Shown one piece after another: positions 39,615-62,446 of a stretch of DNA of 64,000 nt (positions within the stretch are counted from its first letter, which is position 1; every line of letters begins with the position of its first letter). The notes under the pieces were generated by a model. The model was not told the origin of the DNA and searched no databases. It worked only from the letters and a program-made list of their open reading frames with translations. Origin of the DNA: a bacterium (GTDB taxonomy: Bacteria > Patescibacteriota > Patescibacteriia > JAGPKW01); assembly GCA_021780535.1 (NCBI GenBank), contig JAJXYN010000009.1, forward strand, positions 150,538-214,537, in the 5' to 3' direction. A program made the position numbers and the translations under genes.

Positions 39615-39785
39615 AAAACTAAAAAAGTGATGATTTTGTATAATATCATCACTTTTTTGTTTATATGCGTATTTGCTTGTTTTTATTGGTACTAGACTCC
39701 GTTCTGTTGTTAGTAACTTATTTCTATTATTTTTTAATGTAAGCTATTATATATAAACCAATGCGACAAAGGTTTCTCTTGATAG
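39615..39785. repeat. Direct repeat A1 (about 170 bp), paired with A2 at 59875..60043
   Basis: About 85% identical to 59875-60043 by eye. It begins with the hairpin aaaaagtgatgattttgtataatatcatcactttttt and continues gtttatatgcgtatttgcttgtttttattggtact...gtaagctattat...ccaatgcgacaaaggt. Confidence 0.8.
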
Positions 39786-39946
39786 ATATACACAGTTATT
39801 TTTTTATTTTATATTAAACAATAACTTAAAAAATTAATTAAAAATTAGTAACTTTATTAATAAATTATTAATTATGAAAAAAGTTGAATGTATAGTAAAA
39901 TATACTTATTACATTGGAGTCTTGAGCAATAATACACTAAAGCTAT

Positions 39947-40813
39947 ATGGAAAAAGAAACAAAATTAGAAAAAATATTACCATTTAGATGGGCTGGCGGT
40001 AAATATTATGCTTTAAATAAGCTAAAACAATTCTGGGAAAATTTTGAACATGATGAATATCGTGAACCGTTTTTTGGTGGTGGTGCTGTATTTTGGGCAA
40101 AACCAAAAGTTAAATTTAATTGGATAAATGATATAGATAATGGTTTAATAGATACCTTGGAATTTATACAAGATGATGAAAAAAGAATTGAACTTATAAA
40201 ACTATTTGAAAATGAACAAGAAGCCACAAAAGAGAAATATTTAAAAATAAAAGCACTTAATCCAAAAACAAAACTGGAATCGGTTTATAAATATTATTAC
40301 TTAAATAGAACTTCTTTTAGTGGTAAAATGAAAAATCCTTCATGGGGTTATAGGCCGAAAAGAAGTTTGCCTCCTATTAGATGGAAAGAAAGAATAATAC
40401 CTTGTGGTGAAAAATTAAAAGATGTAAAAATAACAAATTTAGATTTTGAAAAAGTAATATTATCTAAGGCTATTGGTAAAAAGGTTCTTATGTTTTTAGA
40501 TCCGCCATATTATAATGCTAAACAAGAAAGCCATTATACATTTTCCTTTAAAAAAGAAGATCATGAAAGATTAGCATTGGCTTGCAAAAAAACAAAACAT
40601 AGTTTTTTCTTAACATACGATGATTGTGAAGAAATTAGGAAGTTGTATTCTTGGGCAAATATATTAAGTTTAGAATTTTATTATAGACTTGATAACTCTA
40701 AAGATAATAATAACAAAAGAAAAGTTGGTTCAGAAATTATTATTACAAATTATAAATTAGAAAATATAGATAAAGAAATTCTTAAACATGCAACAATTAA
40801 AATTGATAAATGA
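39947..40813 (+). CDS. Dam-family (D12 class) N6-adenine DNA methyltransferase, copy 1
   Basis: FRWAGGKYYALNKL (Dam motif X/I), EPFFGGGAVFW (FxGxG), FLDPPYYNA (motif IV DPPY) and a C-terminal EIIITNYK typical of DpnM/Dam-like enzymes. Confidence 0.8.
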   Translation: MEKETKLEKILPFRWAGGKYYALNKLKQFWENFEHDEYREPFFGGGAVFWAKPKVKFNWINDIDNGLIDTLEFIQDDEKRIELIKLFENEQEATKEKYLKIKALNPKTKLESVYKYYYLNRTSFSGKMKNPSWGYRPKRSLPPIRWKERIIPCGEKLKDVKITNLDFEKVILSKAIGKKVLMFLDPPYYNAKQESHYTFSFKKEDHERLALACKKTKHSFFLTYDDCEEIRKLYSWANILSLEFYYRLDNSKDNNNKRKVGSEIIITNYKLENIDKEILKHATIKIDK

Positions 40814-41678
40814 TATAGTAGATAAATCTTATGCAAGTATCCAAAAATTGGATATTTCTAAAATAAAAAAATGTAAGACAGATAAAACTCGTCCATTTTT
40901 AAGATATCCTGGAAGTAAATATAATGCTTCTAAATATATAATGCCATTTTGGGATAGTATAGAATTTAACGAATATCGTGAACCTTTTTTAGGAAGCGGG
41001 GCGATTTTTTTTAAAATGCCTAAAGTTGAATATTCTTGGTTAAATGATATAGATGATGATTTGATAAATTGTTTTTCTATAATTGCAAATGAAAAAACTA
41101 GACTAGATCTAATAAAAAAAATTGAAAATTTAAAACCATCAAAAGAGTTATTTGATGATATAAAAAATACAAAACCAATAAACTCTATTGATAAAGCTTA
41201 TAGATATTTTTTAATAAACAGAATGGCTTATGGTGGAATTATGAATAAGCCAAATTGGGGGTTTCATCCAACTAAAAGCGTACAACCTGACAAATGGGGA
41301 GATAGAATAATGCAGGCTGGAATAAAACTTGAAGATAATGTAAAAATAACTAAAAAATCATATTTAGATGTGATAAATGCTGAATCAAATAATAAAGTTT
41401 GGCTATTTGTAGATCCACCATATTTTAAAGCTGATCAAAAAAGAGCTTATGCTCATTCTTTTAATTATAAAGACCACATAGAGCTACTAAATTCACTAAA
41501 AAAGACAAAACATTATTTTTGTTTGACTTATGATAATTGTGAAGAAATAAAAGAGCTTTATTCTTGGGCAAATATTTATGAAATAGAATGGATGTATCAT
41601 ACAGCTAATTCAAAAGTTGCTTCTAGAAAAATGGGTAAAGAATTAATTATATCTAATTATAAAATTCATCAGGTATAA
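40788..41678 (+). CDS. Dam-family N6-adenine DNA methyltransferase, copy 2
   Basis: RYPGSKYNASKYI, EPFLGSGAIFF, FVDPPYFKA and ELIISNYK. It is a paralogue of the upstream gene, which it overlaps by 26 nt. Confidence 0.8.
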   Translation: MQQLKLINDIVDKSYASIQKLDISKIKKCKTDKTRPFLRYPGSKYNASKYIMPFWDSIEFNEYREPFLGSGAIFFKMPKVEYSWLNDIDDDLINCFSIIANEKTRLDLIKKIENLKPSKELFDDIKNTKPINSIDKAYRYFLINRMAYGGIMNKPNWGFHPTKSVQPDKWGDRIMQAGIKLEDNVKITKKSYLDVINAESNNKVWLFVDPPYFKADQKRAYAHSFNYKDHIELLNSLKKTKHYFCLTYDNCEEIKELYSWANIYEIEWMYHTANSKVASRKMGKELIISNYKIHQV

Positions 41679-42903
41679 AATCTAACTTGTATGGGCCAGC
41701 CTCTCTAAACACAGAGTCTTCTGCAATAATATTAAATCCATTAGATTTCCCATAAGAGTCTATATCTGGAATAAACTCTATTTCTTTTTTATTATTTAAA
41801 TTTAATTTTAATTTTATATTTGGGTATAAAACATCTGAATACTCTTTTTTATTCCAATCTAATTCTTTAAAAAAATCACCTTTATTTATTTTATAATGCA
41901 TTGGTAAATCTTTTACTGGTAATAGTATAAAATGCAATTTATTGTCTAGTATAACTCTAGGTAATTGATGATTTGATATTATTACAGAAACATAATCAAG
42001 TTCATTTCTTTTGTAACCACGATTAGGAAATCTTCCATGTGTACCCATTATCTCAACACCAATTTTATTATTATCAATATCACACATATTTTTTGATGTG
42101 CCTTTTGTTTGTATTTTTATTTTATAACCATTTTTATTTTCTATTGCTACATCATATTTTGGATAAGGCCCCTCTGGTTGTATTACTTTTAAATCCTGTT
42201 TTCTCAAATATTCTTCAAACCAAAATTCTTTTAGATTTCCTTTTAAACCCATTACAGCTGCTCTAAAATATTCTGGTTTACACAACATTTCTATTATTTC
42301 ATAATCCTCCAAATATGTTTCTTTGCTTAAAAATGGCAACAAGCTATTTTTTGGAGCTATTCTATCATCTATTATTTTACCATCTATACTGTCTAGTCCT
42401 ATGACTCCCCAATTATTCAACCTCTTATTTTCCCATTCTATTTTAGCCGGATCCGCAAGATATCCATCCCACGAATTATGTTTTGGTATTTCATTATGAG
42501 GTATTATAAAAATTCCAGATTCTGGATGTTGCAAAACCAAAAAATCAAATGTTTTTTCAGATGAGTTATATAGGTTGTGTGGACGCTTTTCTAATCCATG
42601 AGTCTTATGCAAGGCTACTCCTACAAATTTATCTTTAGTTGTTGAGTTTTTAACAGGAGTTTTTAGTTGTAATTTTAAATTATTTACATATACATCTACA
42701 TCACTATCTCCCTCACCATCTTGTATGTTAATGTTATTAATATTTTTTCTTAATATTTTTTTAAAATATTCTTCAAAAGCTATGCCCTTTATTGGCCTTA
42801 GTATGTTTGCATCTTTTTGAACTATATTATCTATCATACTCCAATCTATATCATTAAGCTCTATTATTTTTTCAAATCTTAATTTTAGTTCTTCAGTTAT
42901 CAT
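41653..42903 (-). CDS. Candidate Type II restriction endonuclease partnering the two Dam-like methyltransferases
   Basis: 416-aa ORF convergent with, and overlapping, the second methyltransferase. Two PD-(D/E)xK-like segments with Q-x-K variants (DSDVDVYVNNLKLQLK and YDVAIENKNGYKIKIQTK). The call rests mainly on gene context. Confidence 0.5.
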   Translation of the reverse strand: MITEELKLRFEKIIELNDIDWSMIDNIVQKDANILRPIKGIAFEEYFKKILRKNINNINIQDGEGDSDVDVYVNNLKLQLKTPVKNSTTKDKFVGVALHKTHGLEKRPHNLYNSSEKTFDFLVLQHPESGIFIIPHNEIPKHNSWDGYLADPAKIEWENKRLNNWGVIGLDSIDGKIIDDRIAPKNSLLPFLSKETYLEDYEIIEMLCKPEYFRAAVMGLKGNLKEFWFEEYLRKQDLKVIQPEGPYPKYDVAIENKNGYKIKIQTKGTSKNMCDIDNNKIGVEIMGTHGRFPNRGYKRNELDYVSVIISNHQLPRVILDNKLHFILLPVKDLPMHYKINKGDFFKELDWNKKEYSDVLYPNIKLKLNLNNKKEIEFIPDIDSYGKSNGFNIIAEDSVFREAGPYKLDFIPDEFYN

Positions 42904-42980: not shown

Positions 42981-43613
42981 ATGAAAAATGGAACAATAAT
43001 GATAGGTGGATCAGACTCTAACGATAATTTTAGAAAAGTATTTGATTTAAAAATCACAAATGGTTTTCCTATAATATCAACTACTGATAAAGATTTATCA
43101 ATAGAATGTAATAATAAAATAATAAATCATACCAATATAAATCACATATCTATCCCGGCAGATTTAAATATTCATCTTACTGGAAAACAAAATGAACATT
43201 ATTTTTTTATCGAAAGAATTACAAATAACGGATTATTAAATAGTGATTCATATAATATTTTTAGTTTATTTAGTATGCCAATAGAAAATTATGATTTTCC
43301 AGTTGGGACATGGAATCAGGCTGAAATATTTGGAATTAAAAAAGACGGCCTATTTAATAATAAAACCGGTATGTTTGTTGAGTTTTTTGTTTTTAAAAAT
43401 AGTTTTGATTTAAATACCTTGAATGCTTTATATCCATTTAAAGATAGCTCCATGAGAGAGCCTTATATTCTTGGGCCATATAATTTTAGTGAAATTATAA
43501 GAAAGGATAGAAAAAATATAAAACCAGATTTTAAATTTGTAACAAGAGTTGGTTTTTACGAAAACACAGACAATGAATCAAAAATTATAATTCCTTTTGA
43601 TATAAGAGGTTAA
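42981..43613 (+). CDS. Hypothetical protein (210 aa)
   Basis: Open frame between the R-M module and the recombinase. Confidence 0.4.
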   Translation: MKNGTIMIGGSDSNDNFRKVFDLKITNGFPIISTTDKDLSIECNNKIINHTNINHISIPADLNIHLTGKQNEHYFFIERITNNGLLNSDSYNIFSLFSMPIENYDFPVGTWNQAEIFGIKKDGLFNNKTGMFVEFFVFKNSFDLNTLNALYPFKDSSMREPYILGPYNFSEIIRKDRKNIKPDFKFVTRVGFYENTDNESKIIIPFDIRG

Positions 43614-44902: not shown

Positions 44903-44904
44903 AT

Positions 44905-44937
44905 ATTAATGTGTTATTTATTATCTAACACATTAAT
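44905..44937. promoter_or_regulatory. 12-bp perfect inverted repeat abutting the recombinase start codon
   Basis: attaatgtgtta-N9-taacacattaat, 3 nt upstream of the serine recombinase ATG. Could be an operator or recombination site. Confidence 0.35.
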
Positions 44938-45028
44938 GACGCAACCCATCTAGTGCGTCTAGAGTGCATAGTTGATAAGTAATAAGCAAAGATATATTAT
45001 TTAAATATAAACTATGAATTAAATAATT

Positions 45029-46615
45029 ATGATTTATGTTACTGGTATGTATAACGGACGGTATTTGTATGTAGATGAAGGTATAGGAAAAATTAGGCAC
45101 CTATGCATTAGTAGTAATCAATTAAGAGAATCTGATATTAAAATATTTTTTTCTTCTTATAATTTGTCAAATTTACTAATTGAATTTGGAAAAAGATCAA
45201 TAAAAATATTTTTTTCTAATGAAAATGTAGGTGTTGTAAAAATAGAAAATATAGATGTCCATATAGGGCAATTTCAATTAATATATCTTTCTATGGTTTC
45301 TATATTATCTACAAATTGGTATAAAAAAGAAGAATTAAAATATCCAGAAAGTGCAATAAATTACTTATCATGGTTTTATGGAACATATCTCTTAGATGAT
45401 ATTGAATTGGTAAAGGAAAATTATGAAAAATATTTTTTGAAAATGTACTGTACACAAATATTAGAATCACAATTTGATTCTCATATTGAATTGAGTAGAA
45501 ATATTTTTATGTTTTTTAAATTATTACCAGAATTAATGGTTAAGTATAAAAAATTAGAAACATTTTTTAATAGAATTTTAGATTTAATGAATAATGAATT
45601 TGGAATAAAAAATATTGGCGATTATTTTGCTTTGATAAATATAGAAATAAATAAAATAAAAGAAACAGGTAGTCCTTTAATAAAATTAAATAACAGTAGT
45701 CCGTTGTATATAAATACAAAAAAAATAATAGATTTTTATTCAATAGATTATAGAAAGTTTAGGACTATACATGATAATCAAAATATAGATATTAAAGAAC
45801 ATCAAGTTAGATACTCATATAATCCTTTATGGAGATATCCAATTATAAGGAAAGATGATGAATTTGATGCTTATATTATTCCTAATATATCTATTTTATT
45901 TAAGAAAACAATTGATTTTTATTGGTCTTTTGGGTTTTTATATGAAAAATATGGATATAATATACCAAAATTTAGAGAAAAATATGGGTATATTTTTGAA
46001 GAATACGTTGGTTGTGTTTTAGAAAAAATATATGATAGCAGAACTTATGCCGGTGATTTATATGGCCCAAATAATCACCAAGAACTTTCTGATTATATAT
46101 TAGAAGAAGTTGATAAATTTTATTTTTTTGACGCTAAAGCTGATGTTTTAGATCTTAATGCAATAAAACATGGGGAAACCGAAAAGGTTTGCAATAAACT
46201 TTTTGAACATATCAGACAAAGATTTGATAGGTTGATGGATATAAAATATTTTCATGAACTAAAAAAATATAGAAGTAAAGAAATTTTTAATATAATAGTA
46301 TTAAAAGAAATACCATTTATAGAACATGCTGGGTTTTATGCAACCGAATTAAATAAAAAAATAGAATCTCTAGCTAATACAAATATTAAATATAAGGATA
46401 TAAAAAAGATGAAGTATTTTTTTATAAATATATCAGATCTAGAGCATTTTTATTTGCTTAAAGATAAATACAAAATAGAAGAAGCTATAGGAATTGTTTA
46501 TAACAATAATGGCATAGGGTTTAAAAGCCTTATAGACCCGAAAGATTATGAAAAAAATGGTTTTATCTTTGATGATGAAGTAGAAAAAATATTAAAAGGA
46601 ATTATAAAAAAGTAG
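45029..46615 (+). CDS. Hypothetical protein (528 aa)
   Basis: Long open frame in the island. No motif recognised. Confidence 0.4.
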   Translation: MIYVTGMYNGRYLYVDEGIGKIRHLCISSNQLRESDIKIFFSSYNLSNLLIEFGKRSIKIFFSNENVGVVKIENIDVHIGQFQLIYLSMVSILSTNWYKKEELKYPESAINYLSWFYGTYLLDDIELVKENYEKYFLKMYCTQILESQFDSHIELSRNIFMFFKLLPELMVKYKKLETFFNRILDLMNNEFGIKNIGDYFALINIEINKIKETGSPLIKLNNSSPLYINTKKIIDFYSIDYRKFRTIHDNQNIDIKEHQVRYSYNPLWRYPIIRKDDEFDAYIIPNISILFKKTIDFYWSFGFLYEKYGYNIPKFREKYGYIFEEYVGCVLEKIYDSRTYAGDLYGPNNHQELSDYILEEVDKFYFFDAKADVLDLNAIKHGETEKVCNKLFEHIRQRFDRLMDIKYFHELKKYRSKEIFNIIVLKEIPFIEHAGFYATELNKKIESLANTNIKYKDIKKMKYFFINISDLEHFYLLKDKYKIEEAIGIVYNNNGIGFKSLIDPKDYEKNGFIFDDEVEKILKGIIKK

Positions 46616-46722
46616 ATAAACAGTAGATAAAACACTTTACTTTAGGGCTATTATAAGCTAATATACTAATACAATTCAATTTGCCTAAACTAATGTTTAT
46701 AACATTGGCATGGCATAAAATT

Positions 46723-46850
46723 CGTTGAAAGATAAAATTGGTCTCATGACCAGTATTTTTGCTTTCAACGTCTACACCCGAAAGGATGTAGGGTTACCCT
46801 CGAAAGAGATGTAACCATAAATGCTGTGTCGTGGGGCCTTTTTGTTTCTA
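46723..46850 (+). promoter_or_regulatory. Candidate structured 5' leader RNA with two GAAA-tetraloop hairpins
   Basis: Nested helices: cgttgaaag...ctttcaacg enclosing tggtc-tcat-gacca, then ctacaccc-GAAA-ggatgtag and ggttac-cctc-GAAA-gagat-gtaacc. GC is elevated. It sits about 50 nt upstream of the 46896 gene. Confidence 0.3.
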
Positions 46851-47393: not shown

Positions 47394-47405
47394 TTTCTAG
47401 AGTTT

Positions 47406-48830
47406 TTATATTACTCTTATTTTCAATTTATCTTTCTTAATTCCATGTATTATTCCCATAGAAAAAGCATCAACCAAATCATCATGATTTTTCTCTATAC
47501 CAAAATTTAATAATTGTTTTATTAATTCTTCAACTCCTTCGTTTGGAAAGAATATTAAACCTCTTTGAACATATATTGAAGCCATGTTTAATCTTGTAGT
47601 TTTATCTTTTCCATTTGGATTAAACTCTTCTGAAGAATATCCATCTTTTGAAAGCATTTGTATTAATGAAGCTTGATAGCCAATGGATTCTATTAATATT
47701 TTAGTTCTACCAGTTTCTATTAAATTATCATAAATATTCTTTGCATATTCTATAACTCTTGGTGATTGTAGTCTTTTATTTACAACATTAGGAAGAATAT
47801 ATAATTCATTTTGTTCTGTTTTAATGTTCTTATATATTGCAAAAGAAACCATTGCTGTATAGTCTGCTTTTTCATGTTCCTTAAGGGCTGGGTCTATAGA
47901 TATTATATTCATAATGAATTTATAGTCAGGATTATTACTTGGCAATTCTTTATAGTATTTAATCCAATCTTTTTTAAATATTTGGTAATCATCTGGTAAT
48001 ATCGTAAGCATATATTCTCTTTGAAAAGATATTTCATTACCAATACTTTTTCTTAAGTCTTCAACTTCTTCTTGTGATGAAAACTTCTCTTTCCATAATA
48101 TTTCTTCATCTTTAACCAATGGATATTCTTTATATATCCCATTAATCTCTTTATTTCTTATTTTATTTTTCATTCTCATAATAAGAGAGTCTTCATGAAG
48201 TAAATTACCAACTAATATTATTTTAGTATCTTTATCTCCAAGAGGTACTATTTCAGATGTAAACCAAGTTTCAAGCTTGTTTCTGCTTTCAATACTCCTT
48301 ACACTTTCTAAATCTTCTATATCATCACAGATAATTAAATCTGGTCTCGTTTCTTTATATCTAATACCTCTAATACTTGTTTCAAAAGATGCACATTTTA
48401 TTGTTGCATCTATTTTTTTAAAATGAATTGATTTCTGATTTATTACTATATTTCTATCAATTAAATTAAAATCATTTCTTAATAATTCATTATTCTCAAT
48501 TTCTGATATTATGTTTTGAAAATGTATTTTAGCTTGATCTTGAGTTTTAGAAATTATCAAAACAAACTTCTTTTTATTCTTTCCAAGCACAGACCATAAA
48601 GCATAAGATAATGTTATTATTGTACTCTTAGCTGATCCACGGAAAGCTGTTAGCACAGAAAACTTATTCTTATCATTATTTATCACTTCAAATATTTCTT
48701 GTTGAAATTCTGCTAGTTTATATTTAACATAATTTCTTAAGTATATGAAAAAGAAATACATATTATCTTCGTATGCAATATTTTTTCTTAGTATCTTATT
48801 TTCAATTATTTCATTCAACAATTTGTTCAT
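47406..48830 (-). CDS. Phage terminase large subunit (TerL)-like ATPase/nuclease
   Basis: Walker A-like FRGSAKST and Walker B LIICDD in the N-terminal half. C-terminal nuclease motifs IISIDPALKE...ADYTAMV and HDDLVDAFSMG. Confidence 0.7.
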   Translation of the reverse strand: MNKLLNEIIENKILRKNIAYEDNMYFFFIYLRNYVKYKLAEFQQEIFEVINNDKNKFSVLTAFRGSAKSTIITLSYALWSVLGKNKKKFVLIISKTQDQAKIHFQNIISEIENNELLRNDFNLIDRNIVINQKSIHFKKIDATIKCASFETSIRGIRYKETRPDLIICDDIEDLESVRSIESRNKLETWFTSEIVPLGDKDTKIILVGNLLHEDSLIMRMKNKIRNKEINGIYKEYPLVKDEEILWKEKFSSQEEVEDLRKSIGNEISFQREYMLTILPDDYQIFKKDWIKYYKELPSNNPDYKFIMNIISIDPALKEHEKADYTAMVSFAIYKNIKTEQNELYILPNVVNKRLQSPRVIEYAKNIYDNLIETGRTKILIESIGYQASLIQMLSKDGYSSEEFNPNGKDKTTRLNMASIYVQRGLIFFPNEGVEELIKQLLNFGIEKNHDDLVDAFSMGIIHGIKKDKLKIRVI

Positions 48831-49218
48831 CTTCTTTTTTATATAATGGTGATTTTTGAAGTGCTGAAATGATTCTCATCTTGTCGTCATTAGAAAGTTT
48901 TGATTCTATTACAGCATCAATAAGTTTTGATTTATTTCTATATCTATCATGATTATGAGTTAACCAAAATTTAACGGATTCTATTTTTCCATCTTTAACA
49001 TTCTTAATTAATGCATTTTCAGCAACATCATTTATAGTTTCTATTCCTACATGTATTTTTTCATCGACCTTTGTTTTAAATTTTGGATCTTTTTTAAACC
49101 ATTCATAAATGGTAGATCTTGGAATATTTAATTTAACACAAACACTCTGCACTATAGGATATTCTTCTATAAGCTCTAAAAACTTTTTCTTAAGTTGTGT
49201 CTGTATTTTTCTATCCAT
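48811..49218 (-). CDS. Small HTH protein, terminase small subunit-like
   Basis: 135 aa with the HTH VCVKLNIPRSTIYEWFKK. It lies immediately upstream of, and overlaps, the TerL-like gene. Confidence 0.5.
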   Translation of the reverse strand: MDRKIQTQLKKKFLELIEEYPIVQSVCVKLNIPRSTIYEWFKKDPKFKTKVDEKIHVGIETINDVAENALIKNVKDGKIESVKFWLTHNHDRYRNKSKLIDAVIESKLSNDDKMRIISALQKSPLYKKEDEQIVE

Positions 49219-49954: not shown

Positions 49955-49963
49955 ATTGTTTTA

Positions 49964-52586: not shown

Positions 52587-52602
52587 TTAATAATAAAAAA
52601 AT

Positions 52603-53043
52603 ATGAAAAATAAAATTTTAGTTACAATAATATCTATAATTATATTTATAACATTTGCTTTGTTATATATTTACAATAAGGAGCATATTTTAAAAATAAT
52701 CATAATAATTATATTCTCTTTTACTATATTATTTTTATATTTAAAATTATATTATATAGAAATTAATAGAATTAATAATAATTATAATTTCAGCAAAGAA
52801 GAGCTGGAAAGAAAGTATATTAAAAAGATTGATGATACAAAAAAAGATTTAGAATTAAGAGGAATGACTTTTAGTGGTGAAGCTGTTATTAAATTAGGCA
52901 AAGAAAGCGCATACTCAGATATTAGTGATGATGGAGAGATTTTAAAAGAGAAATTTTTTTATCTACAAAAATTAGAAAAAGATTACAATATTGATTTAAA
53001 AAAAGCCACTTACACCGCTTTATTAAATATATTTAAAAAATAA
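52603..53043 (+). CDS. Small two-TM membrane protein with cytoplasmic tail
   Basis: Two N-terminal TM helices. Begins 17 nt after the integrase and ends 11 nt before the large NTPase gene. Confidence 0.45.
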   Translation: MKNKILVTIISIIIFITFALLYIYNKEHILKIIIIIIFSFTILFLYLKLYYIEINRINNNYNFSKEELERKYIKKIDDTKKDLELRGMTFSGEAVIKLGKESAYSDISDDGEILKEKFFYLQKLEKDYNIDLKKATYTALLNIFKK

Positions 53044-53053
53044 CCTGAAAAAA

Positions 53054-56000
53054 ATGAAACTAATAGAATGGTCAAAAATAGATAATGACAAAACATTTCA
53101 AAAATTAGTAAATGATGTTTTTTCTCTAGAAATAAATCATCCAGGTTTTATATTTAGTAATCCTTATATAGGAAAAGATGGCGGATGGGATGGTATGTAT
53201 AAGGGCAAATATATGGAAATAGATGGCACATGGTCATTTCAATCAAAATATACTAAAAATAATGGCATCGAAGCTTGTAGATCTTTAAAGTCACAAATAA
53301 TAAAAGAATTAGAGAAATCTAAAACCAATAAGGTTGATAATTTAATATTATTAACAAATGCTGATTTAACTGTAGATCAAGTAAATGAATTAATATTATT
53401 AAATACTGGGTATGTAAAAAATTTTTTCATTTGGCCAAAAGAAAATCTTGATAGTAAAATTAAAGATTATCCTTGGATAAGACATAGATATTTTAATGAT
53501 GTACAACAACCAGCATTTGCCCCTTTTATAAATATAGATAACGATGATTATAATCATGTTGAAATAGAAACAAAAAGAGAACAAGAAGAAAAAATGTTTA
53601 GTGACTTTTTATTAGATGACAAAAAAATTCTTATAATTCATGCTAGTGGCGGATGTGGTAAAACATACTTCATAAATCAAATATTTAAAAAATACTCTAA
53701 TAATACTAATGAATATAATTTTTTATATTATATTCCAGGAATAAGAGATGTTGACGATGCTCTGAATGATGAATTAGATATAAGTAAAAATGTTATAATA
53801 TTTTTAGATGATTCCGAAAGATACATTGAAGATGTTACAAAAAAATTATTATCAAGGGTTAATTCATATTCTCCTGGAAAAATAAAAATAGTTCTAATAA
53901 CTAGGACATCTGGAAAATCTATAATAATTGATATTATAAATTCTTTAGGAATAGCAATTGATAAATATGAAGAAATAGAACTTCAGAAACTACCAAACGA
54001 TAGTTTAATTAAAATTTTGAATTTTTTTGCAAAAAAAAATGTTTCTAATTCCGAAGAAATCTTAAATGAAGTATCTAGTAATTTATTTTTATTAATATCT
54101 ATAGGTAAATTAATTTCAAAAAATAAAGGTAAAGTAAATGTTAAATCAATAAAAAATAAGATAAAGTATGATTTAGAAAAAGATGTTTGCGACTCATTAA
54201 AAATTTTTTCTTTAAGTGACCAAAAAATTAAAGAATTACTTTTTGAACTCGCTATACTTATACCATTTAACGATGATAATTTAGATATATTGGAAAAAAT
54301 ATCAAATAAATTATCTTTAAACCAGAGTGATATTAAAAAATATATACAAAAACTAAAAACAGATAAAATTCTTATTAACATAGGCTACTCTATAAGATTT
54401 TATTCTGATATGGTTGGGGATGTATACTTATCTGTAATTTTTGATTCTGACGATGGAACATTAATAAAAAATATTCTGAATAGTTGGTTTGAGGTATTTC
54501 CTGAAAAAATAATATCGAATATATCCTCTGCAGTGAAGCATTCAGATGGTGATTTCAATAAAGATCCAATAAGAAATACAATAAAAGAGATATCAATAAA
54601 TTCAACAAAATTAGACGATTTTAATAAAATAAATAAACTTAAGACATTCTCTCAAATAGCTTATATAATTCCAGATGAAATAATAGATTTAATTTATTGC
54701 TTTCTTCAAACGTCTGAAAAAATCACAACTGATGATTGTGGTCCAATTATAATTAATTTATTATATTTGCAAGAAGAATCTATTAGAAAAAAACTTATTG
54801 AATTAATTTTATTTGTATCCGATAAAAACATAGAGGGAAAATATCAGAATTATAAAATAGAAACTTTAGCAAAACGTTTTGTTTCACCTATTTATAATAC
54901 ATTAGAATGTGCAACTTCATCATTGAATTTAGTATCAAACATTTCAAAGAAACAAAACTTAACCAACTCGGAGATAAAAATTATAAAATATTCATTAGAA
55001 GAATCTTTATCATCTTCGCATGATTATGAAGAAAGTTATGGCATAAAAATGACCTTTTCTAAAAAAATTCTAAATTATAAAAATGAGGTTAAAGAAAAGA
55101 TTGACATATATAGAGATTTAGCCATGAATACATTACATGAATGTTTAAAAAATAATGATGATGATATAAAAAATGAGTTCATTGATTTAATTTCTGATAT
55201 CGGAAATGGAGAAACGTCAAAAAATTATAGCATATGGGATAGAATAATATTAGACAAAGAAAAAACAATTGATTTTATAGAGGAAATTTTAAAAACCCCC
55301 ACAAATAATAAAATAATTGCATCATTAGAAGATATATTAATAAGAGAATGGTCTAATAATAATATTTATAAAGATGGTACTAATAACAAAATATCAAAAA
55401 TATTAATAAATTTTCCAAGAAACCCAGAATATATTATTTTCAAAAATTTTATATCTAAAGATATAATAATTTATGATTTTAAAAACATAGAAGAAATAGC
55501 GCCAGACAAGGATAGATGGTCGTGGATTATTGATAACTATTTTAGAAATGAGGATATAAAAATGGATGAATTTGAAAAAACTGTGGAGGAGATATCTAAA
55601 AAATACAACAAGAAAGAGGATATAATAAGTTATTTAATTTCTTTATATAAAGATGTTAAAGACAATCTAACGTGGCAATATATACCATTGATAGAAACTT
55701 GGTCAAAATATAATAAATCTGTTTTTATAGAAATAATAAACGATGAAACTTTATTAAATAAATTACCTATCATATTTAATTTGGGTATATATATAGTAGC
55801 CGCTGATGACGATGAAAAATATATCACATCATTAGCAAATAAAATTTTAAATGATGATATTAAAAATATAAATATTCAATATTTATACAATTTATTAAAT
55901 TTAATAGATAGACATAAAATTAGTAATAAAATTTTTATCCCATGGATTTTAGAGATTATAAAAAACTCAAATCTATCAGCTCAGAGTGGAATATTACATA

Positions 56001-56878
56001 GATCATATTTTATTTTTAAAGATAGATCTGAGGAAGATAAAAAAGAAGTTTTTAAAATAATGGATTGCGTTTTGGATAATATTAAGGACCCAAGAGTTCT
56101 TGATATGTTTGAGTTTCTTTTGCATAGCTCTAAAACATGGAATATAGAAGAAGATGAGCTAGAAACTTTAAGAAATAAGCTAACTAATATTATAAAAGAT
56201 TTACATAATATAGAACATCATTCTAATGAATTGCTAACATTTTCTATAAATAATAATATGGATAAGTTTATAGATTTTTTAGAATACAGATTGTTAAAGC
56301 ATAAAGAGTTTGTAGAAAAAAATGATTATTCTTTTGATGCGATACCATATGAAGGTTTTCGTTTATTGAAAAATATAATATCAAATTATAATGATTTTTA
56401 TAATCTTATTTTAAAAACAAATTCTTGGATAAAGGATAATTTATTTTATCCATTTGAATTGGATAATTTGCTTAAAGAATTAGAAAATTGCGATACATAC
56501 ATAGATGAATTTATAGAAAAAAATATTAATTCTAATGACAAAAAGATATTTAGCATTCTTATTAATTTTTTATATAGCATTGATTTTACAGAAAAATCTA
56601 GCATTATTTTTTTAAACACATTAATTAATTCTCAGAATCTTGGATTAATAGACGAAGCGAAGAATTTATTTATTCATAAAGTTTTAAGCGGCTCGTATTC
56701 ATCTAGCATAGGAGAAGCTCCACCGGCTTTAGTAAATAAGAAAAATATTTTGTATAAATTAGAAAAAGAATGTCCAAATGGAATAATAAAGGTTTTTATA
56801 TCTTCTATTAAAGATTCTATAGAAAAACAAATAGAAGATAATATAAAAGAAGGTCAAGAATTAATTAACCCTAAATAA
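53054..56878 (+). CDS. Giant Mrr-like nuclease / P-loop NTPase / helical-repeat protein (Avs/STAND-like candidate antiviral sensor)
   Basis: aa 30-80: FIFSNPYIGKDGGWDGMYKGKYMEIDGTWSFQSKY matches the Mrr_cat PD-(D/E)xK block (D-G-G-x-D ... Q-x-K). aa about 195: IHASGGCGKTYFINQ (Walker A). About 245: VIIFLDDSERY (Walker B). Then about 1000 aa of alpha-helical repeat-like sequence. Confidence 0.65.
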   Translation: MKLIEWSKIDNDKTFQKLVNDVFSLEINHPGFIFSNPYIGKDGGWDGMYKGKYMEIDGTWSFQSKYTKNNGIEACRSLKSQIIKELEKSKTNKVDNLILLTNADLTVDQVNELILLNTGYVKNFFIWPKENLDSKIKDYPWIRHRYFNDVQQPAFAPFINIDNDDYNHVEIETKREQEEKMFSDFLLDDKKILIIHASGGCGKTYFINQIFKKYSNNTNEYNFLYYIPGIRDVDDALNDELDISKNVIIFLDDSERYIEDVTKKLLSRVNSYSPGKIKIVLITRTSGKSIIIDIINSLGIAIDKYEEIELQKLPNDSLIKILNFFAKKNVSNSEEILNEVSSNLFLLISIGKLISKNKGKVNVKSIKNKIKYDLEKDVCDSLKIFSLSDQKIKELLFELAILIPFNDDNLDILEKISNKLSLNQSDIKKYIQKLKTDKILINIGYSIRFYSDMVGDVYLSVIFDSDDGTLIKNILNSWFEVFPEKIISNISSAVKHSDGDFNKDPIRNTIKEISINSTKLDDFNKINKLKTFSQIAYIIPDEIIDLIYCFLQTSEKITTDDCGPIIINLLYLQEESIRKKLIELILFVSDKNIEGKYQNYKIETLAKRFVSPIYNTLECATSSLNLVSNISKKQNLTNSEIKIIKYSLEESLSSSHDYEESYGIKMTFSKKILNYKNEVKEKIDIYRDLAMNTLHECLKNNDDDIKNEFIDLISDIGNGETSKNYSIWDRIILDKEKTIDFIEEILKTPTNNKIIASLEDILIREWSNNNIYKDGTNNKISKILINFPRNPEYIIFKNFISKDIIIYDFKNIEEIAPDKDRWSWIIDNYFRNEDIKMDEFEKTVEEISKKYNKKEDIISYLISLYKDVKDNLTWQYIPLIETWSKYNKSVFIEIINDETLLNKLPIIFNLGIYIVAADDDEKYITSLANKILNDDIKNINIQYLYNLLNLIDRHKISNKIFIPWILEIIKNSNLSAQSGILHRSYFIFKDRSEEDKKEVFKIMDCVLDNIKDPRVLDMFEFLLHSSKTWNIEEDELETLRNKLTNIIKDLHNIEHHSNELLTFSINNNMDKFIDFLEYRLLKHKEFVEKNDYSFDAIPYEGFRLLKNIISNYNDFYNLILKTNSWIKDNLFYPFELDNLLKELENCDTYIDEFIEKNINSNDKKIFSILINFLYSIDFTEKSSIIFLNTLINSQNLGLIDEAKNLFIHKVLSGSYSSSIGEAPPALVNKKNILYKLEKECPNGIIKVFISSIKDSIEKQIEDNIKEGQELINPK

Positions 56879-56883
56879 AAAAT

Positions 56884-57708
56884 ATGACAAAAAATTCATA
56901 CGATAAAATTTGGGGTTATGTAGAAAAGCTTTATATACATTGTTATAGAGTCGACGGTTTTGTTAAATTTTTAAAATCTAATGAAATATTACTACCAGAC
57001 GATTTCTATAATAATTTTGAAATATATTCTTTTATGACAACTGAGAATTGTAATTTCTCCGATTTTATGATTTCGAATGTTGATGATAGTAAATATAAAA
57101 AAATAATTAGCCAAGTGATATTTGATAAAAAAATTATTAAAACAAAGGATATTGATTGGAATTATCTTGGAGTTAAAATAAAAGAGTGGTATCCAAAATT
57201 ACTTAAAGAAGTAGATAATGTTAAAATATCTCTGTATGAAAACATAAACGAGAAAGATTTGTTAATATATAATACAAAAAACCCATTTCTCGATCATTTA
57301 ATATCAGAGATTAATGATACTTATAATAATAAAAACTATGTAGCAGTAATAATGTTGATGAGAAAATTAATGGAATGCATGATAATAATAATATTTGAAA
57401 CATATTTTCCAAAAACTCACAAAGGAACATTCAATAAATCAAATCACGAATTATGGTATAACTATAGCACTCGTAGATATCAAGAATTTGAAACATTATT
57501 ATCTAATCTAGACTTAAAGCAAAATGATTTTCATGAAGATAGATTCTTAGTATCTGATACTTGCAAGGTTATAAAAAAATTCAAAGACGAGGCTAATAGA
57601 ATAGTCCATAGAGACTATAAAATACCAGATAAGATGATAGTTGATAATTATAAAATACCAGAAATGTATAATATGATTGCTAAAATATATAGCAAATATT
57701 GTTCATGA
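56884..57708 (+). CDS. Hypothetical protein (274 aa), same operon as the NTPase and TIR genes
   Basis: Starts 6 nt after the NTPase stop. No motif recognised. Confidence 0.45.
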   Translation: MTKNSYDKIWGYVEKLYIHCYRVDGFVKFLKSNEILLPDDFYNNFEIYSFMTTENCNFSDFMISNVDDSKYKKIISQVIFDKKIIKTKDIDWNYLGVKIKEWYPKLLKEVDNVKISLYENINEKDLLIYNTKNPFLDHLISEINDTYNNKNYVAVIMLMRKLMECMIIIIFETYFPKTHKGTFNKSNHELWYNYSTRRYQEFETLLSNLDLKQNDFHEDRFLVSDTCKVIKKFKDEANRIVHRDYKIPDKMIVDNYKIPEMYNMIAKIYSKYCS

Positions 57709-57776
57709 ATATAAAAATAATACGACCACTTCATGTAGCAATGAAGTAACCACTAAATAAAAATTTAAAAATAAAT

Positions 57777-58814
57777 ATGCCAGAAAATAATAACGAAATG
57801 GATTTAGATGAATCTATAAAAAAAATTATAGAAATTCAAAATTTGATAAGACAAGGTCTAGCAAGGCCAGATGAAAAAAACAATGCTTTCAAAATAGCAA
57901 AAGATGCTACATCTAATTTTACAGATGATATTTTTAAAAGAAGAGCTGAAAAAGAAGAAAGAAATACGGGTTGGTCGGTGCAAACACACGATGGGTTTGT
58001 AGCCTCATCAGAAGCTAGTCAATTAGACGGACTTCTAAATTTATTAAAGGAATATAGAGACACTTTTTATTCTACAAAAAATACTGAGCAAAATTATCCA
58101 GAAATAGAAAAAAATGAAGAAATAGAAAAAGATATTAATAATTTTGGTTCAAAAATATTTATTAGCTATAACACAAAACATAAAAATTTTGCCGGAAAAA
58201 TAAAAGAGTCACTTTATGAAAATAAGATAGATTCTTTTTTAGCACATGAAGATTTAGAAGTATCTACTGAATGGAAAATAGAAATATTAGAAGCTCTAAA
58301 AAAATCAAATGTATTTATAATATTACTTTCTAGCGATTATTATGAATCTCCTTGGTGTTATCAAGAGTCTGGAATTATAGCTTATTTAGAAAATTTTAGA
58401 GATAATGTAACAATAATACCAATTTCTATAGATGGCACAATTCCAAAAGGATTTATTGGTCATAGACAATCTAAACCAATAATAAATATGGAAGAATTTG
58501 ATTTTTCTATACTTTTGCCAGGTTTATTTATTGATAATCCTGATTGGGTTGTAAATTTTTTAATTAAAAAAATAGAAGGGTCAGGAAGTTTTAGAAATGC
58601 CGAAAATAATTTTGAAAAAATATTACCATACTTAGGAAAAATGAATAAAAAATATGGTAAAAAATTACTAGAAGTATGCGTAAAAAATGACCAAATTTAT
58701 AATGCTAGTCTTTGTATAGGTGAATATATATCAAAAGCAATAGCTTTGTATGGCGATTTATTAAGTAAGGAAGATCTAGATTTTTTAAATAATAAAATTG
58801 AAGCCTATAAATAA
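57777..58814 (+). CDS. TIR-domain protein
   Basis: Central region DIFISYNTKHKNFAGKIKESL...SNVFIILLSSDYYESPWCYQESGI has the TIR hallmarks: FISY start, hydrophobic core strand, and SxWCxxE with a conserved Glu. It is flanked by about 120-aa N-terminal and about 100-aa C-terminal extensions of unknown function. Confidence 0.7.
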   Translation: MPENNNEMDLDESIKKIIEIQNLIRQGLARPDEKNNAFKIAKDATSNFTDDIFKRRAEKEERNTGWSVQTHDGFVASSEASQLDGLLNLLKEYRDTFYSTKNTEQNYPEIEKNEEIEKDINNFGSKIFISYNTKHKNFAGKIKESLYENKIDSFLAHEDLEVSTEWKIEILEALKKSNVFIILLSSDYYESPWCYQESGIIAYLENFRDNVTIIPISIDGTIPKGFIGHRQSKPIINMEEFDFSILLPGLFIDNPDWVVNFLIKKIEGSGSFRNAENNFEKILPYLGKMNKKYGKKLLEVCVKNDQIYNASLCIGEYISKAIALYGDLLSKEDLDFLNNKIEAYK

Positions 58815-58825
58815 GTGTGCTATAT

Positions 58826-58988
58826 AAATAAATCTAATATTAGCCAATAATTATCAACACAAGTCAATCAAATACTACACTACGTACTGTCCAATTTGTC
58901 CAATTTTTTCTATTGAAAAATGAGATGCTAGTGCATCTCATTTTATATTCTCTGAAGTATCAAAACGCTTGCTGGTATTGAACTCAAT
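58826..58988. repeat. Direct repeat B1 (about 160 bp), paired with B2 at 62287..62446
   Basis: atctaatattagccaataattatcaa...aatttgtccaattttttctattgaaaaatgagatgctagtgcatctcatttt...ctgaagtatcaaaacgcttgctggtattgaact. Contains a terminator-like hairpin. About 85-90% identical to B2. Confidence 0.75.
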
Positions 58989-59089
58989 GCGTACCCAACG
59001 CGACTGTTGAGCCAAGTAGTATAAGTGACTCTATTGCGTCACTCACAAAAATAAGCCACTTTACTGTGGTTTATTTTTAATTTAAAAAA

Positions 59090-59875
59090 ATGTTAAAAAA
59101 GGAAATTTGTGAAATTATATATAAAAATGCTTATGATATCTTATTAAATGAGATTGGAAAACATGATTTAGAATTACATTTAGAAAATGACTCTAAATTT
59201 AATGATATAAATACAATAACATATAGATTAATATCTTCTGCACAAAACAGGCAAATGATGCCTAATGTGATAAAATTTCATAAAAATGAAGAAGCAATGA
59301 AAAATATTCTATTTAATTTTTCACATAATAATATATTAAATACTTATAAAAATAGTGAGTTATTGTTAAATATATTTAAAAAAAAATTTAGTAGCGCAAA
59401 AATATCTAATGAAAAAAGAAATTTATGGTTTCAATTTTCTGAAAGTATTTTTTCAATATGTAATTTTATGTCTAACTTTAAAGATGAAAAAGAATTTAAC
59501 AATTTTGTTAAATCATTTAATTTCAATAAATACACAAAAGCCTCTTTACCAATGCTTTTAAGTACAGAAATAAAGGGCTTTAGATTTGCTTTAGCTTGTG
59601 ATTTTTTAAAAGAATTAGGTTATAGAGAATACCCAAAGCCAGACATTCATCTAATTGATATATTTTATGAATTAAAACTTTCCGAAAGTAGAGATCCTTA
59701 TGATGTATATAAAAATATAGTTGAGTTTTCTGAAATTATAAATATTGATGCTTATTCTGTTGATAAGATTTTTTGGTTATTATCTTCTGGTGATTTTTAT
59801 AGAATAAACAAAACAATGAAATCTAAGAAAAAAGAATTTATTGAAATGATGAAAAATAAATTATCCATTAATTAA
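59090..59875 (+). CDS. Hypothetical protein (261 aa)
   Basis: Open frame between repeat B1 and repeat A2. Confidence 0.4.
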   Translation: MLKKEICEIIYKNAYDILLNEIGKHDLELHLENDSKFNDINTITYRLISSAQNRQMMPNVIKFHKNEEAMKNILFNFSHNNILNTYKNSELLLNIFKKKFSSAKISNEKRNLWFQFSESIFSICNFMSNFKDEKEFNNFVKSFNFNKYTKASLPMLLSTEIKGFRFALACDFLKELGYREYPKPDIHLIDIFYELKLSESRDPYDVYKNIVEFSEIINIDAYSVDKIFWLLSSGDFYRINKTMKSKKKEFIEMMKNKLSIN

Positions 59876-60043
59876 AAAACTAAAAAAGCGATGATTTTGT
59901 ATAATATCATCACTTTTTTATTTATGTGCGTATTTGCTTGTTTTTATTGGTACTGTACCCTCTTCTATTGTTATTAACTTATTTTCTTTATTTTTTTATG
60001 TAAGCTATTATAAATAAGCCAATGCGACAGAGGTCTCTCGACC
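59875..60043. repeat. Direct repeat A2, paired with A1 at 39615..39785
   Basis: aaaaagcgatgattttgtataatatcatcactttttt atttatgtgcgtatttgcttgtttttattggtact...gtaagctattataaataagccaatgcgacagaggt. Same hairpin and downstream blocks as A1. Confidence 0.8.
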
Positions 60044-60089
60044 TTTTAAATAAAGAGTTTTATAATAATTATGAATATAAATTATAAAA

Positions 60090-61376: not shown

Positions 61377-61600
61377 TTATTCAATAATTATTTCTTTATC
61401 TTTTATTAAAAATTTACTCTTGATGCACCCCGTTAATTGTTTCTTCTGTTCTATATTTCCATCTCTCAATATAAACTTAGCATAAGTTTTCATATCAATA
61501 ATATCATTGTGATTATCTTCTTTAGATATGCCAAGAACGTTTCTTCTAAAACTATTATATCTCTGTATTTCTTCTTCTCTAATATAAATTTAAGCATGAA
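61376..61600 (-). pseudogene. Truncated remnant (3' about 220 bp) of a second large serine recombinase gene
   Basis: About 88% nucleotide identity by eye to 43610-43830, the C-terminal coding end of the intact recombinase. Similarity stops abruptly near 61600. Confidence 0.7.
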
Positions 61601-61646
61601 TAATGGACTTTTTAATGTTTTTATGCTAATAAATTAGTAATAACAT

Positions 61647-62249
61647 ATGGAGGTTTATATGAACTTATCAAAATTAATTGATTCTTTTGTGAATAATGAA
61701 AGGAATGAAGATGTTCTTTTCTATTTTCAAGAAATCTTCAATCAAGAAGGTTTTGGACAGAATAGATTTCATAAGTATGACGTTCTAAATCACACAAGAA
61801 AACTAGTAAAACAGTACAGGAAAGCTGATTTTATCTCTGAAAAAGTAAGAACCTATCTTTCTGAAATTATTGATGGTATTTCCAAAGACCTACTACTCCA
61901 AGTTGCTATGTGCTTTCATGATTCTGGAAAGAAAATAATGAAAGACTCTACCGGAAGTATGAAAGGACATGCTGAATATACTGTAAAAAATCAACTTGAA
62001 GAAATATCTAAAAGATTTGGTTTTACAGAAAATCAGAAAATGTATGTCGGCAATATTATTCTTTATCATGACTTCATCTTGAGTGATAGTGAAGAAGTAA
62101 ATAAATTCTTGAAAGATAATCACATTGAAGTCGAAGGATTAATTATTTCTCTAGTAGATATTCTTTCTACCCAAGGTGAGGAAGCTTTTGGTGAAGAAGA
62201 TATGACAAGAATTGATTTTGGTAAAGAAAAATTGTTGAATGTTTTGTAG
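61647..62249 (+). CDS. HD-domain phosphohydrolase-like protein
   Basis: FHKYDVLNHT...VAMCFHDSGK fits the H...HD metal-binding motif of the HD superfamily. Confidence 0.5.
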   Translation: MEVYMNLSKLIDSFVNNERNEDVLFYFQEIFNQEGFGQNRFHKYDVLNHTRKLVKQYRKADFISEKVRTYLSEIIDGISKDLLLQVAMCFHDSGKKIMKDSTGSMKGHAEYTVKNQLEEISKRFGFTENQKMYVGNIILYHDFILSDSEEVNKFLKDNHIEVEGLIISLVDILSTQGEEAFGEEDMTRIDFGKEKLLNVL

Positions 62250-62286
62250 TAATACCTCAATTTTGATATTGAGGGCTTTTATTTTA

Positions 62287-62446
62287 TTAAATATCTAATA
62301 TTAGCCAATAATTATCAATATAAGTCAATCAAATACTACGCTACATACTGTTCAATTTGTCCAATTTTTTCTATTGAAAAATGAGATGCTAATGCATTTA
62401 AGACACTCTTCTCTGAAGTATCAAAATGCTTGCTGGTATTGAACTA
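62287..62446. repeat. Direct repeat B2, paired with B1
   Basis: Same atctaatattagccaataattatcaa...ttctattgaaaaatgagatgcta...ctgaagtatcaaaatgcttgctggtattgaact blocks as B1. The hairpin is partly degraded. Confidence 0.75.

Follow-up and report, generated by a model that had tools for sequence, protein, structure and literature searches.

The 64-kb window analyzed here (the whole stretch from 150,538 to 214,537 of contig JAJXYN010000009.1, from a bacterium of the Candidate Phyla Radiation [CPR], or Patescibacteria) probably holds, in an array beside a tRNA-Asn gene, two related islands borne by large serine recombinases (LSRs), both of them members of a family that is mobilized by such enzymes and found throughout the CPR. 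Element 1 (approximately window positions 39577 to 59024; 19.4 kb) is intact, and element 2 (59875 to 62449) is a 2.6-kb relic of a sister element in which noncoding repeat A, one cargo gene, the last 66 codons of the LSR gene, a gene for an HD-domain protein, and noncoding repeat B are retained. A preliminary description of this DNA had proposed two tandem copies of one element with different cargo and a decayed second recombinase gene, and relatives in other genomes, where repeat A, cargo, and the serine recombinase (SR) gene follow one another with differing cargo, bear out that core reading. The plan running from A to the recombinase has also held, but the extent then given to the element has not, since B is the distal end and element 1 stretches for ~19.4 kb from its copy of A (A1) to its copy of B (B1). 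The observations that carry our interpretation are the repeats themselves, the gene content of the window, an order of segments kept in other genomes, the diversity of the cargo, the pattern of selection on the recombinase, and the link of the family to tRNA genes.

The route to the tandem arrangement that we infer would run as follows. Integration by the LSR would take place at the 3' end of a tRNA gene; a younger element would enter on the tRNA side of one already there, which would then decay by deletion. Cargo lying between A and the SR stop codon would pass from element to element by recombination, with the conserved framework as its anchor. We propose that breakpoints fall at the SR stop codon because selection acts against any that would disrupt the SR reading frame.

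Repeats A, B, and C and the remnant of a second recombinase gene

Comparison of the window with itself recovered every repeat pair named in the preliminary description, together with its recombinase-like fragment; apart from the paralogous methylase genes, repeats A and B and a third pair, C, which lies within the SR gene, are the sole long direct repeats of high identity in the 64 kb. Repeat A is 89% identical in an ungapped alignment (39614 to 39778 versus 59875 to 60039) and 81.7% identical over 213 nucleotides (nt) when gaps are admitted (39614 to 39824 versus 59875 to 60087; E 3e-48), and repeat B is 90% identical ungapped (58832 to 58988 versus 62293 to 62449) and 89% identical in a second alignment (58825 to 58988 versus 62288 to 62449; E 5e-46). 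At the DNA level, the copies of C are 89% identical (43616 to 43813 versus 61380 to 61577; E 1e-60), and tblastn maps SR residues 364 to 429 in frame to 61577 to 61380 of the minus strand with 90.9% amino acid (aa) identity (E 2e-32), the C2 peptide corresponding to the last 66 residues of SR and being terminated by a stop codon. With identities of 88 to 89% for A and 89 to 90% for B, the repeats are not AT-rich coincidences of less than 70% identity, and the fragment, properly aligned, is homologous to the recombinase. C2 is possibly 18 nt longer, beyond a gap of ~78 nt; no portion of the SR gene other than C is duplicated within the window. All four copies of A and B are intergenic, and the order downstream of tRNA-Asn is A-C-B, A-C-B; the three repeat pairs are therefore homologous parts of the framework of two elements. 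The layout first proposed had omitted the tRNA-Asn gene, the anchor of the array, found 37 nt upstream of A1.

Of the terminator-like hairpins ascribed to both repeats, those of A and B1 are present, but that of B2 is degenerate. The hairpin of A (A6-GTGATGAT / ATCATCAC-T6) is perfectly conserved between the copies and was skipped by the terminator scanner because its loop measures 10 nt; in B1 the scanner called a terminator at 58917 to 58944. A role for A and B as structured RNAs was discarded, RNAalifold having returned one terminator hairpin for each and zero compensatory changes. By eye, A also contains an open reading frame (ORF) of 25 to 26 codons for a very hydrophobic peptide (MRICLFLLVLDSVLLLVTYFYYFLM in A1; 39665 to 39742 in A1, 59926 to 60003 in A2, and ~5180 to 5260 in the related contig L091), with frame and stop codon kept in those three copies and broken in the relatives L008 and L009; the ORF may simply result from the T-richness of the sequence. 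Clusters of short repeats of the type AAAAACTAAAAA elsewhere in the window (23919 to 24014 and 7115 to 7142) came up as apparent chance matches to the A-rich start of A.

Assemblies of the same organism in ENA and Logan break within A1 (L005), near the SR promoter (L007), and within B2 (L104 and L105), and independent breaks at A1 and B2 are expected of genuine repeats; the junction from the HD-domain gene through B2 to orf118 is bridged by assembly contig L103, and the arrangement is common to all assemblies of this organism. We give hardly any credence to the explanation that A and B are generic dispersed intergenic repeats, akin to repetitive extragenic palindromes, miniature inverted-repeat transposable elements, or terminator cassettes, that lie near SR by coincidence. 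Terminator-like hairpins in both repeats and the breaking of assemblies at them would suit such a view, but each repeat occurs twice within 64 kb and always in the order A-SR-B, the same order is kept in three other genomes that have no other synteny in common with the window, pairwise alignments reveal no terminal inverted repeats and there are no target duplications, and RNA structure is conserved in one hairpin only.

The two copies of C differ by 15 synonymous and 6 nonsynonymous changes, giving proportions of synonymous (pS) and nonsynonymous (pN) differences of 0.44 and 0.037 and a pN/pS of 0.08, and the C2 peptide is identical to that of L008 over a 20-residue stretch in which C1 differs. 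The relic thus descends from a distinct gene that kept working through nearly the whole of its divergence, which argues against local duplication and, together with the recurrence of tandem SR arrays beside a single tRNA gene in other genomes, agrees with the earlier suggestion of tandem insertion by members of one family. A local segmental duplication of a single element, followed by deletion and replacement of cargo in the second copy, would yield just the order A-C-B, A-C-B and similar identities for the three pairs (88 to 90%), but the low pN/pS of C1 and C2 implies divergence during a period when both genes worked, the C2 peptide is closer to L008 than to C1 over its C-terminal third, and the cargo is wholly different between the copies; we regard this explanation as very improbable.

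Full-length SR genes compared in pairs among four genomes have pS values of 0.41 to 0.50, and among the same elements A is 72 to 92% and B 77 to 90% identical. The identities of A1 with A2 (88%) and of B1 with B2 (90%) in the window are far above the synonymous-site conservation of SR genes, and the 30-nt hairpin of A is identical in four elements. A and B are thus conserved beyond the level of synonymous sites, either because selection acts on them or because they have been exchanged at a later date than the SR genes. The first cargo gene follows directly downstream of A in four of five elements, a placement that fits a terminator-plus-leader role, and A is probably a terminator (insulator) combined with an expression leader for that gene.

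Relatives of the elements and the origin of the array

SR is, by its domain content, an LSR of no named subtype. Its N-terminal resolvase catalytic domain (PF00239; E 6e-23) contains in translation the YARKS...SDRISRN motifs, of which YARKS is catalytic, and aligns in the PDB to TP901-1 integrase and to the N-terminal domain of a conjugative-transposon recombinase, and C-terminal matches to PF07508 (E 4e-11) and the PF13408 zinc ribbon (E 3e-12) are accompanied by the CxxC...C..C pattern. Scores against named NCBIfam models are low (CcrB, 95 bits, and CcrC, 60 bits, with a cutoff of 900 for each; XisF is also far below its cutoff). Free phage genomes were considered as carriers of SR and set aside: GenBank phages contain relatives at 25 to 29% identity only, and a scan of IMG/VR returned a single provirus-like contig, with the same architecture. 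We infer the recombinase activity of SR, the attachment (att) sites, the order of insertion, and the functions of A and B.

Three contigs contain close relatives of the window SR, with protein identities of 90% (L008), 89% (L091), and 86% (L009). In L008 and L009, single copies of A, SR, and B are arranged and oriented as in A1-SR-B1, and L091, a 5-kb Logan contig, contains A, a gene for a 1263-aa protein, and then SR. SR is the only protein common to the window and L008; L009 shares SR, orf210, and a 94-aa stretch of ParB domain. Conservation of A and B cannot be ascribed to synteny, since the flanking genes differ: the window has G6PD and TruB genes on one side and P-type ATPase genes on the other, and L009 has a radical-SAM gene, tRNA-Phe, iPGM, and BipA on one side and Fic, methyltransferase, and ATPase genes on the other, the P-type ATPases beyond B in the window and its relative being only 26 to 29% identical. 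L008 has in common with the window, besides SR, a LOOT RNA, the zinc-ribbon region that follows it, and a 185-nt remnant of the 3' end of TerL, so that LOOT and the terminase module are part of the framework between SR and B.

In each of the five elements, the slot from A to the SR stop codon is filled by a different cargo, three of these cargos being unrelated restriction-modification (R-M) systems: a Dam-type R-M module in element 1, a Bsp6I-like endonuclease with a C5 methylase in L009, a fusion of the MmeI/Eco57I type in L008, a 1263-aa protein without a family match in L091, and a 428-aa putative PIN-like nuclease in element 2. In three of four comparisons (element 2, L008, and L091), the SR stop codon is the precise limit of homology; in the fourth, with L009, homology takes in the orf210 homologue and reaches 42922. 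Its limits toward A vary (39705, 39779, ~39785 to 39824, and 39909, the last with L009), so that the cargo has no fixed cassette site of the integron type.

The 3' half of tRNA-Asn and the spacer that follows it are conserved by alignment in L009, and the last 8 nt of the tRNA gene are conserved in L008. Beside A in L008 (9742 to 9892), those 8 nt (CGGAGCCA) are all that is left of tRNA-Asn, preceded by a decayed T-arm-like stretch in which ARAGORN calls no tRNA, which suggests that the element seen in L008 does not occupy the place nearest the tRNA gene in its array. In L009 (12376 to 13035; also in L089, L090, and L092 to L101), tRNA-Asn is split at the anticodon loop (corresponding to window positions 39535/39536) by an insert of ~555 bp that encodes a 110-aa HNH protein (L009:12628-12960). 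ARAGORN does not call this split gene and Rfam finds no intron family in it at the gathering threshold; our guess is that the insert is a tRNA group I intron with a homing endonuclease.

The link of such elements to tRNA genes was examined in 80 retrieved SR-related loci from species-representative genomes, nearly all of them labeled CPR or Patescibacteria; the family as a whole comprises more than 7600 proteins at E values below 1e-100. In all 56 loci that have a downstream tRNA gene, the nearest one converges on SR from the opposite strand (sign test, ~1e-17), at distances of 94 bp to ~6 kb, and the genes are mostly for tRNA-Ser, with Arg, Gly, Gln, Glu, Trp, Leu, Asp, and Asn also represented. 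Tandem SR genes in the same orientation beside one tRNA gene occur in L015, L064 (where the two are only ~70 bp apart), and L066. Direct repeats resembling att sites, made up of 20 to 60 nt of the tRNA-side flank and 4 to 25 nt of the tRNA 3' end, were found in seven loci, lying within the slot in L079, L031, L042, and L087 and far upstream of SR in L025, L050, and L063, and some tRNA-proximal cassettes have no SR of their own (such as that of L079, with Fic and an uncharacterized gene); such features are the mark left when elements insert one after another at the tRNA end. Two species whose flanks are ~77% identical have in common an SR block of 2.4 kb with 97.7% identity (L074, 2202 to 4620; L075, 348 to 2766); its right edge falls inside the acceptor/T stem of tRNA-Gly and its left edge is sharp, a pattern that points to recent horizontal transfer.

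Slot cargo in the family (78 ORFs of 39 loci) is rich in defense genes, among them reverse transcriptases with bAvd, Shedu SduA, DUF4238, AbiEii-like ATPases with HNH, C5 methylases, HindVP, Vsr, caspase, CYTH, SLOG, and Fic. On the 5' side of SR, the TerL, TerS-like, and ParB-methylase families are present in 13 to 23 of the 80 loci. LOOT RNA occurs in the window and in 24 of the 80 loci (30%; for example, L008, 3399 to 3527; L019, 6316 to 6436; and L076, 9663 to 9782), 0.2 to 9.7 kb from the SR start, on the 5' side of SR in 24 of 25 cases (p 3e-6) and on the opposite strand in 23 of 25 (p 1e-5). Rfam's own model confirmed every LOOT match checked, at 53 to 93 bits in 22 further related loci, and found nothing in seven loci where our model had likewise found none. 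In the window and L008, LOOT is followed by a small zinc-ribbon ORF and adjoins the 3' end of an intact or residual terminase gene. The idea that LOOT is a guide RNA for the choice of target was dropped, since in 16 loci the longest substrings of LOOT that are identical or complementary to the cognate tRNA and att region were no longer than those of noncognate pairs.

Homology between the window and L008, L009, and L091 stops 46 to 80 nt upstream of the SR start (44948 to 44982), and Logan contigs L007 and L091, from different samples, both terminate 55 to 59 nt upstream of the ATG (44957 to 44961). These limits would be accounted for if the mobile unit were a small module of spacer, A, cargo, and SR with inverted arms (39577 to ~44975; 5.4 kb), and LOOT, the terminase genes, the STAND/TIR block, and B were older resident DNA. 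An imperfect inverted repeat of 34 nt at its ends (39575 to 39606, CAACTAGTGCACCCTATGCGAGTGGGTTG, versus 44941 to 44974, CAACTATGCACTCTAGACGCACTAGATGGGTTG) has a score that none of 3000 shuffles reached, and the short distance between the SR genes of L064 and the confinement of the identity between L074 and L075 to the SR block also suit a compact unit. However, B accompanies A and SR in all four elements whose far side is visible (elements 1 and 2, L008, and L009), where other synteny is lacking; L008 shares LOOT and the TerL 3' remnant with the window; and in L008 and L009 the inverted repeat falls short of significance. Across 46 loci, cognate pairs of inverted repeats scored no higher than noncognate pairs (p 0.68), and terminal inverted repeats around a small SR unit were discarded as a feature of the family. 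We think it quite unlikely that the mobile unit is so small.

Several observations weigh against our preferred reading of two stacked LSR islands. An unexplained gene, orf261, separates B1 from A2, and no remnant of the tRNA-Asn 3' end, copy of the spacer, or target-site duplication was detected at the junction of the elements or past B2 when the window was searched by blastn-short, Smith-Waterman alignment with shuffles, and an nhmmer profile; the target-site duplications envisaged in the preliminary description are accordingly not to be found there. The profile found no second copy of the 37-nt spacer in the window, and the spacer is missing before A2. The sole trace is the 12-nt sequence GAGCCAA(C/G)TAGT in the tail of B1, whose score was matched by 42 of 2000 shuffles; interpretation of this tail as the decayed left att site (attL) of a third cassette bearing orf261 was dropped for insufficient statistical support. 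The ends of the elements were set by where homology with L008 and L009 stops, and the A/B framework was found in four genomes only, with none added by a metagenome scan: the pattern for B had no match in viral contigs and that for A a single unrelated one, and metagenomes, where the preliminary description had suggested seeking further copies, gave in the JGI collection only the organism of L009 again with the A pattern. Between the terminase module and B1, the stretch with the Xer-like recombinase and the STAND/TIR genes could have entered as a nested insertion of its own, and the high identity of A and B could result from recent recombination and not from function. Sigma-70-type promoters in A were also rejected, promoter-like sites being no commoner than in shuffled sequence.

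The missing remnants bear in particular on another possible origin of the tandem arrangement, namely, homologous (Campbell-type) recombination or unequal crossing-over in A, SR, or B in place of a second site-specific insertion. Such an origin would sit well with the failure to find an att or tRNA remnant between the elements, with the lack of the spacer in A2 and of the tail in B2, and with the presence of common segments of 160 to 210 nt at ~89% identity; the tandem-SR loci L015, L064, and L066 likewise have no detectable att remnants. On the other hand, L079, L031, L042, and L087 keep att-like remnants between successive cassettes, which indicates site-specific accretion, recombination at 89% identity over 160 nt is inefficient, and orf261 at the junction is explained by neither route. 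We judge a homologous origin to be unlikely and favor two LSR islands stacked beside tRNA-Asn. A wider proposal, tentative and in our view somewhat doubtful, is that the family constitutes an LSR gene-capture platform at tRNA genes throughout the CPR lineage, comparable in operation to the cassette chromosome elements of staphylococci or to integrons, to which new SR units and SR-less cassettes would be added at the tRNA 3' end, with A and B as cis sites of expression or of recombination and LOOT as an element-encoded component.

Gene content of the two elements

The coordinates of the features of the array are collected in Table 1.

Table 1. Features of the tRNA-Asn-linked array, in window coordinates
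Feature	Position	Strand	Remarks
tRNA-Asn (GTT)	39501..39576	+	ARAGORN; Rfam tRNA, 72 bits; 3' end faces the islands
Spacer between tRNA-Asn and A1, candidate element-side att arm	39577..39613	+	37 nt; conserved in L008 and L009
Repeat A1	39614..39824	+	Bidirectional terminator-like hairpin and leader before first cargo gene
Slot 1 cargo of element 1	39947..42903	mixed	Apparent R-M module of three genes
Dam-family m6A methylase genes, tandem	39947-40813 and 40788-41678	+	Pfam; NCBIfam dam
416-aa protein	41653-42903	-	Weak PD-(D/E)XK match (Pfam, E 0.003)
orf210	42981..43613	+	Overlaps SR stop codon; 79%-identical homologue at same place in L009
Large serine recombinase (SR), intact, 430 aa	43610..44902	-	Pfam Resolvase, Recombinase, Zn_ribbon_recom
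Repeat C1	43610-43813	-	Last 204 nt of SR gene
SR upstream region, conserved	44903..44982	-	Perfect 11-bp inverted repeat at ~44906-44936
orf528, variable 5'-side cargo of SR (slot 2)	45029..46615	+	Unique in clustering
LOOT RNA (RF03000)	46682..46816	+	Rfam, 71.9 bits versus gathering score of 46.4
Zinc-ribbon ORF after LOOT	46896-47393	+	Same RNA and zinc-ribbon arrangement in L008
Phage-derived module	47406..51241	-	Four genes, TerL to ParB-methylase
TerL	47406-48830	-	PHROG 38, terminase large subunit, E 5e-85
TerS-like helix-turn-helix protein	48811-49218	-	Phage-derived module
N6/N4 methylase	49211-49954	-	Pfam
ParB-methylase	49964-51241	-	Pfam
Distal cargo of element 1	51654..58814	+	Recombinase, orf146, STAND NTPase, orf274, TIR protein
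Xer-like tyrosine recombinase	51654-52586	+	NCBIfam XerA, 173 bits, below cutoff of 220
STAND NTPase, 1274 aa	53054-56878	+	Pfam; orf146 before, orf274 after
TIR-domain protein	57777-58814	+	PADLOC ThsB-like and TIR models
Repeat B1, distal noncoding end of element 1	58821..59024	+	AGCCAAT/GTCCAAT motif region, terminator, tail
orf261	59090..59875	+	Between B1 and A2
Repeat A2, left end of decayed element 2	59875..60087	+	Starts exactly at hairpin; without 37-nt spacer
Slot 1 cargo of element 2, 428 aa	60090..61376	+	Putative PIN-like nuclease, CPR-wide family
Repeat C2, in-frame relic of last 66 codons of second SR gene	61377..61600	-	Alignment, tblastn
200-aa protein, where rest of second SR gene is expected	61647..62249	+	Weak HD match (Pfam, E 3.5e-4)
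Repeat B2, distal end of element 2	62288..62449	+	Without B1-type tail; hairpin degenerate

The two overlapping methylase genes in slot 1 of element 1 have 64% DNA identity, and with the 416-aa protein they look like an R-M module; the layout suggests an R-M system for an asymmetric site. In front of SR, the perfect 11-bp inverted repeat TTAATGTGTTA-N9-TAACACATTAA (44906 to 44936) finishes 3 nt short of the ATG and is preceded by a GACGCA/TGCGTC hairpin (44938 to 44960); both are near-identical in L008 and L091 and could form an operator for autoregulation. Farther along, the STAND NTPase, the 274-aa ORF, and the TIR protein (53054 to 58814) make up a probable defense cluster, and the tail of B1 is conserved only with L009. 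The 428-aa protein of element 2, listed as unknown in the preliminary description, is here relabeled as a putative PIN-like nuclease; Foldseek found no match to it in the PDB. A homologue occupies the same position in L106, where the order is tRNA-Gln, a small ORF, the homologue, DUF5677, and a convergent SR, and homologues likewise follow tRNA-Gln in L108 and L109. Downstream of B2 lie orf118 and orf235, then P-type ATPases and ordinary genes. No informative match was found in Pfam, PADLOC, NCBIfam, or PHROGs for orf210, orf528, orf261, orf274, or the 1263-aa protein of L091, and GC content fails to mark out the island.

Significance and comparison with known systems

CPR bacteria, which are uncultured and have very small genomes, depend heavily on R-M for their defense; to our knowledge, their genomes largely lack CRISPR. 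How they acquire and exchange R-M systems is poorly described, and the SR islands are one concrete candidate vehicle; if the gene-capture reading is true, the SR family would be a principal vehicle of R-M and other defense genes in CPR genomes. Our search of the literature for serine recombinases paired with Patescibacteria or Candidate Phyla Radiation returned nothing about elements of this kind, and a search for LOOT returned no text about the motif. This orphan RNA gains a reproducible genomic home, which makes its function testable. The SRs themselves are compact LSRs (~430 aa) whose tRNA targets appear to be diverse, and such enzymes are sought as tools for genome integration.

Cargo slots of comparable behavior are known from the hotspots of P2 and P4 prophages and satellites, which are defense-gene hotspots inside mobile elements, and the elements described here resemble them in having a fixed framework around a slot whose changing content is mostly R-M and other defense genes. 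They differ in that the slot is bracketed by noncoding leader A and a recombinase stop codon, and in host lineage and recombinase family. Mobile R-M systems with a link to integrases (Furuta et al., 2010; PMC2853133) offer a further parallel. With integrons the array has in common a recombinase gene beside a codirectional array of cassettes and, in four of five elements, a conserved leader before the first cassette. However, it has no tyrosine IntI, no attC-like element, and no fixed breakpoints, its cargo lies past the 3' end of the recombinase gene and not the 5' end, a repeated structured site was sought at the ends of the cargo and not found, and the Xer-like recombinase of the window scores 64 bits against the integron-integrase model, whose cutoff is 265.

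Islands and prophages that target tRNA genes accrete in tandem, classically through tyrosine integrases. The window island likewise abuts a tRNA 3' end, has its recombinase near the tRNA-side end, and belongs to a family that forms tandem arrays, of which L025 and L031 contain displaced tRNA 3' fragments between successive elements; it differs in employing a serine recombinase and in lacking a displaced tRNA fragment within the window. In staphylococci, elements of the staphylococcal cassette chromosome (SCC; SCCmec and composite and pseudo-SCC forms) are islands inserted by Ccr LSRs at the 3' end of a conserved gene, rlmH, where successive elements stack in tandem, some cassettes have no recombinase, and cargo is highly variable. 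The CPR family has all of these traits in its own form, namely, an LSR-borne island at the 3' end of a gene, tandem stacking, SR-less cassettes, and variable cargo, and SR obtains some of its highest scores among named NCBIfam models from CcrB and CcrC. There are also clear differences: SR is not a Ccr (its CcrB score of 95 bits compares with 900), the target is a tRNA gene and not rlmH, the host belongs to the CPR, the cargo consists of defense and not resistance genes, a terminase module and LOOT are present, and short flanking direct repeats of the SCC type are not detectable in the window. The array is not an integron; in behavior it appears most to resemble composite SCC elements and the tRNA-linked islands that accrete in tandem.

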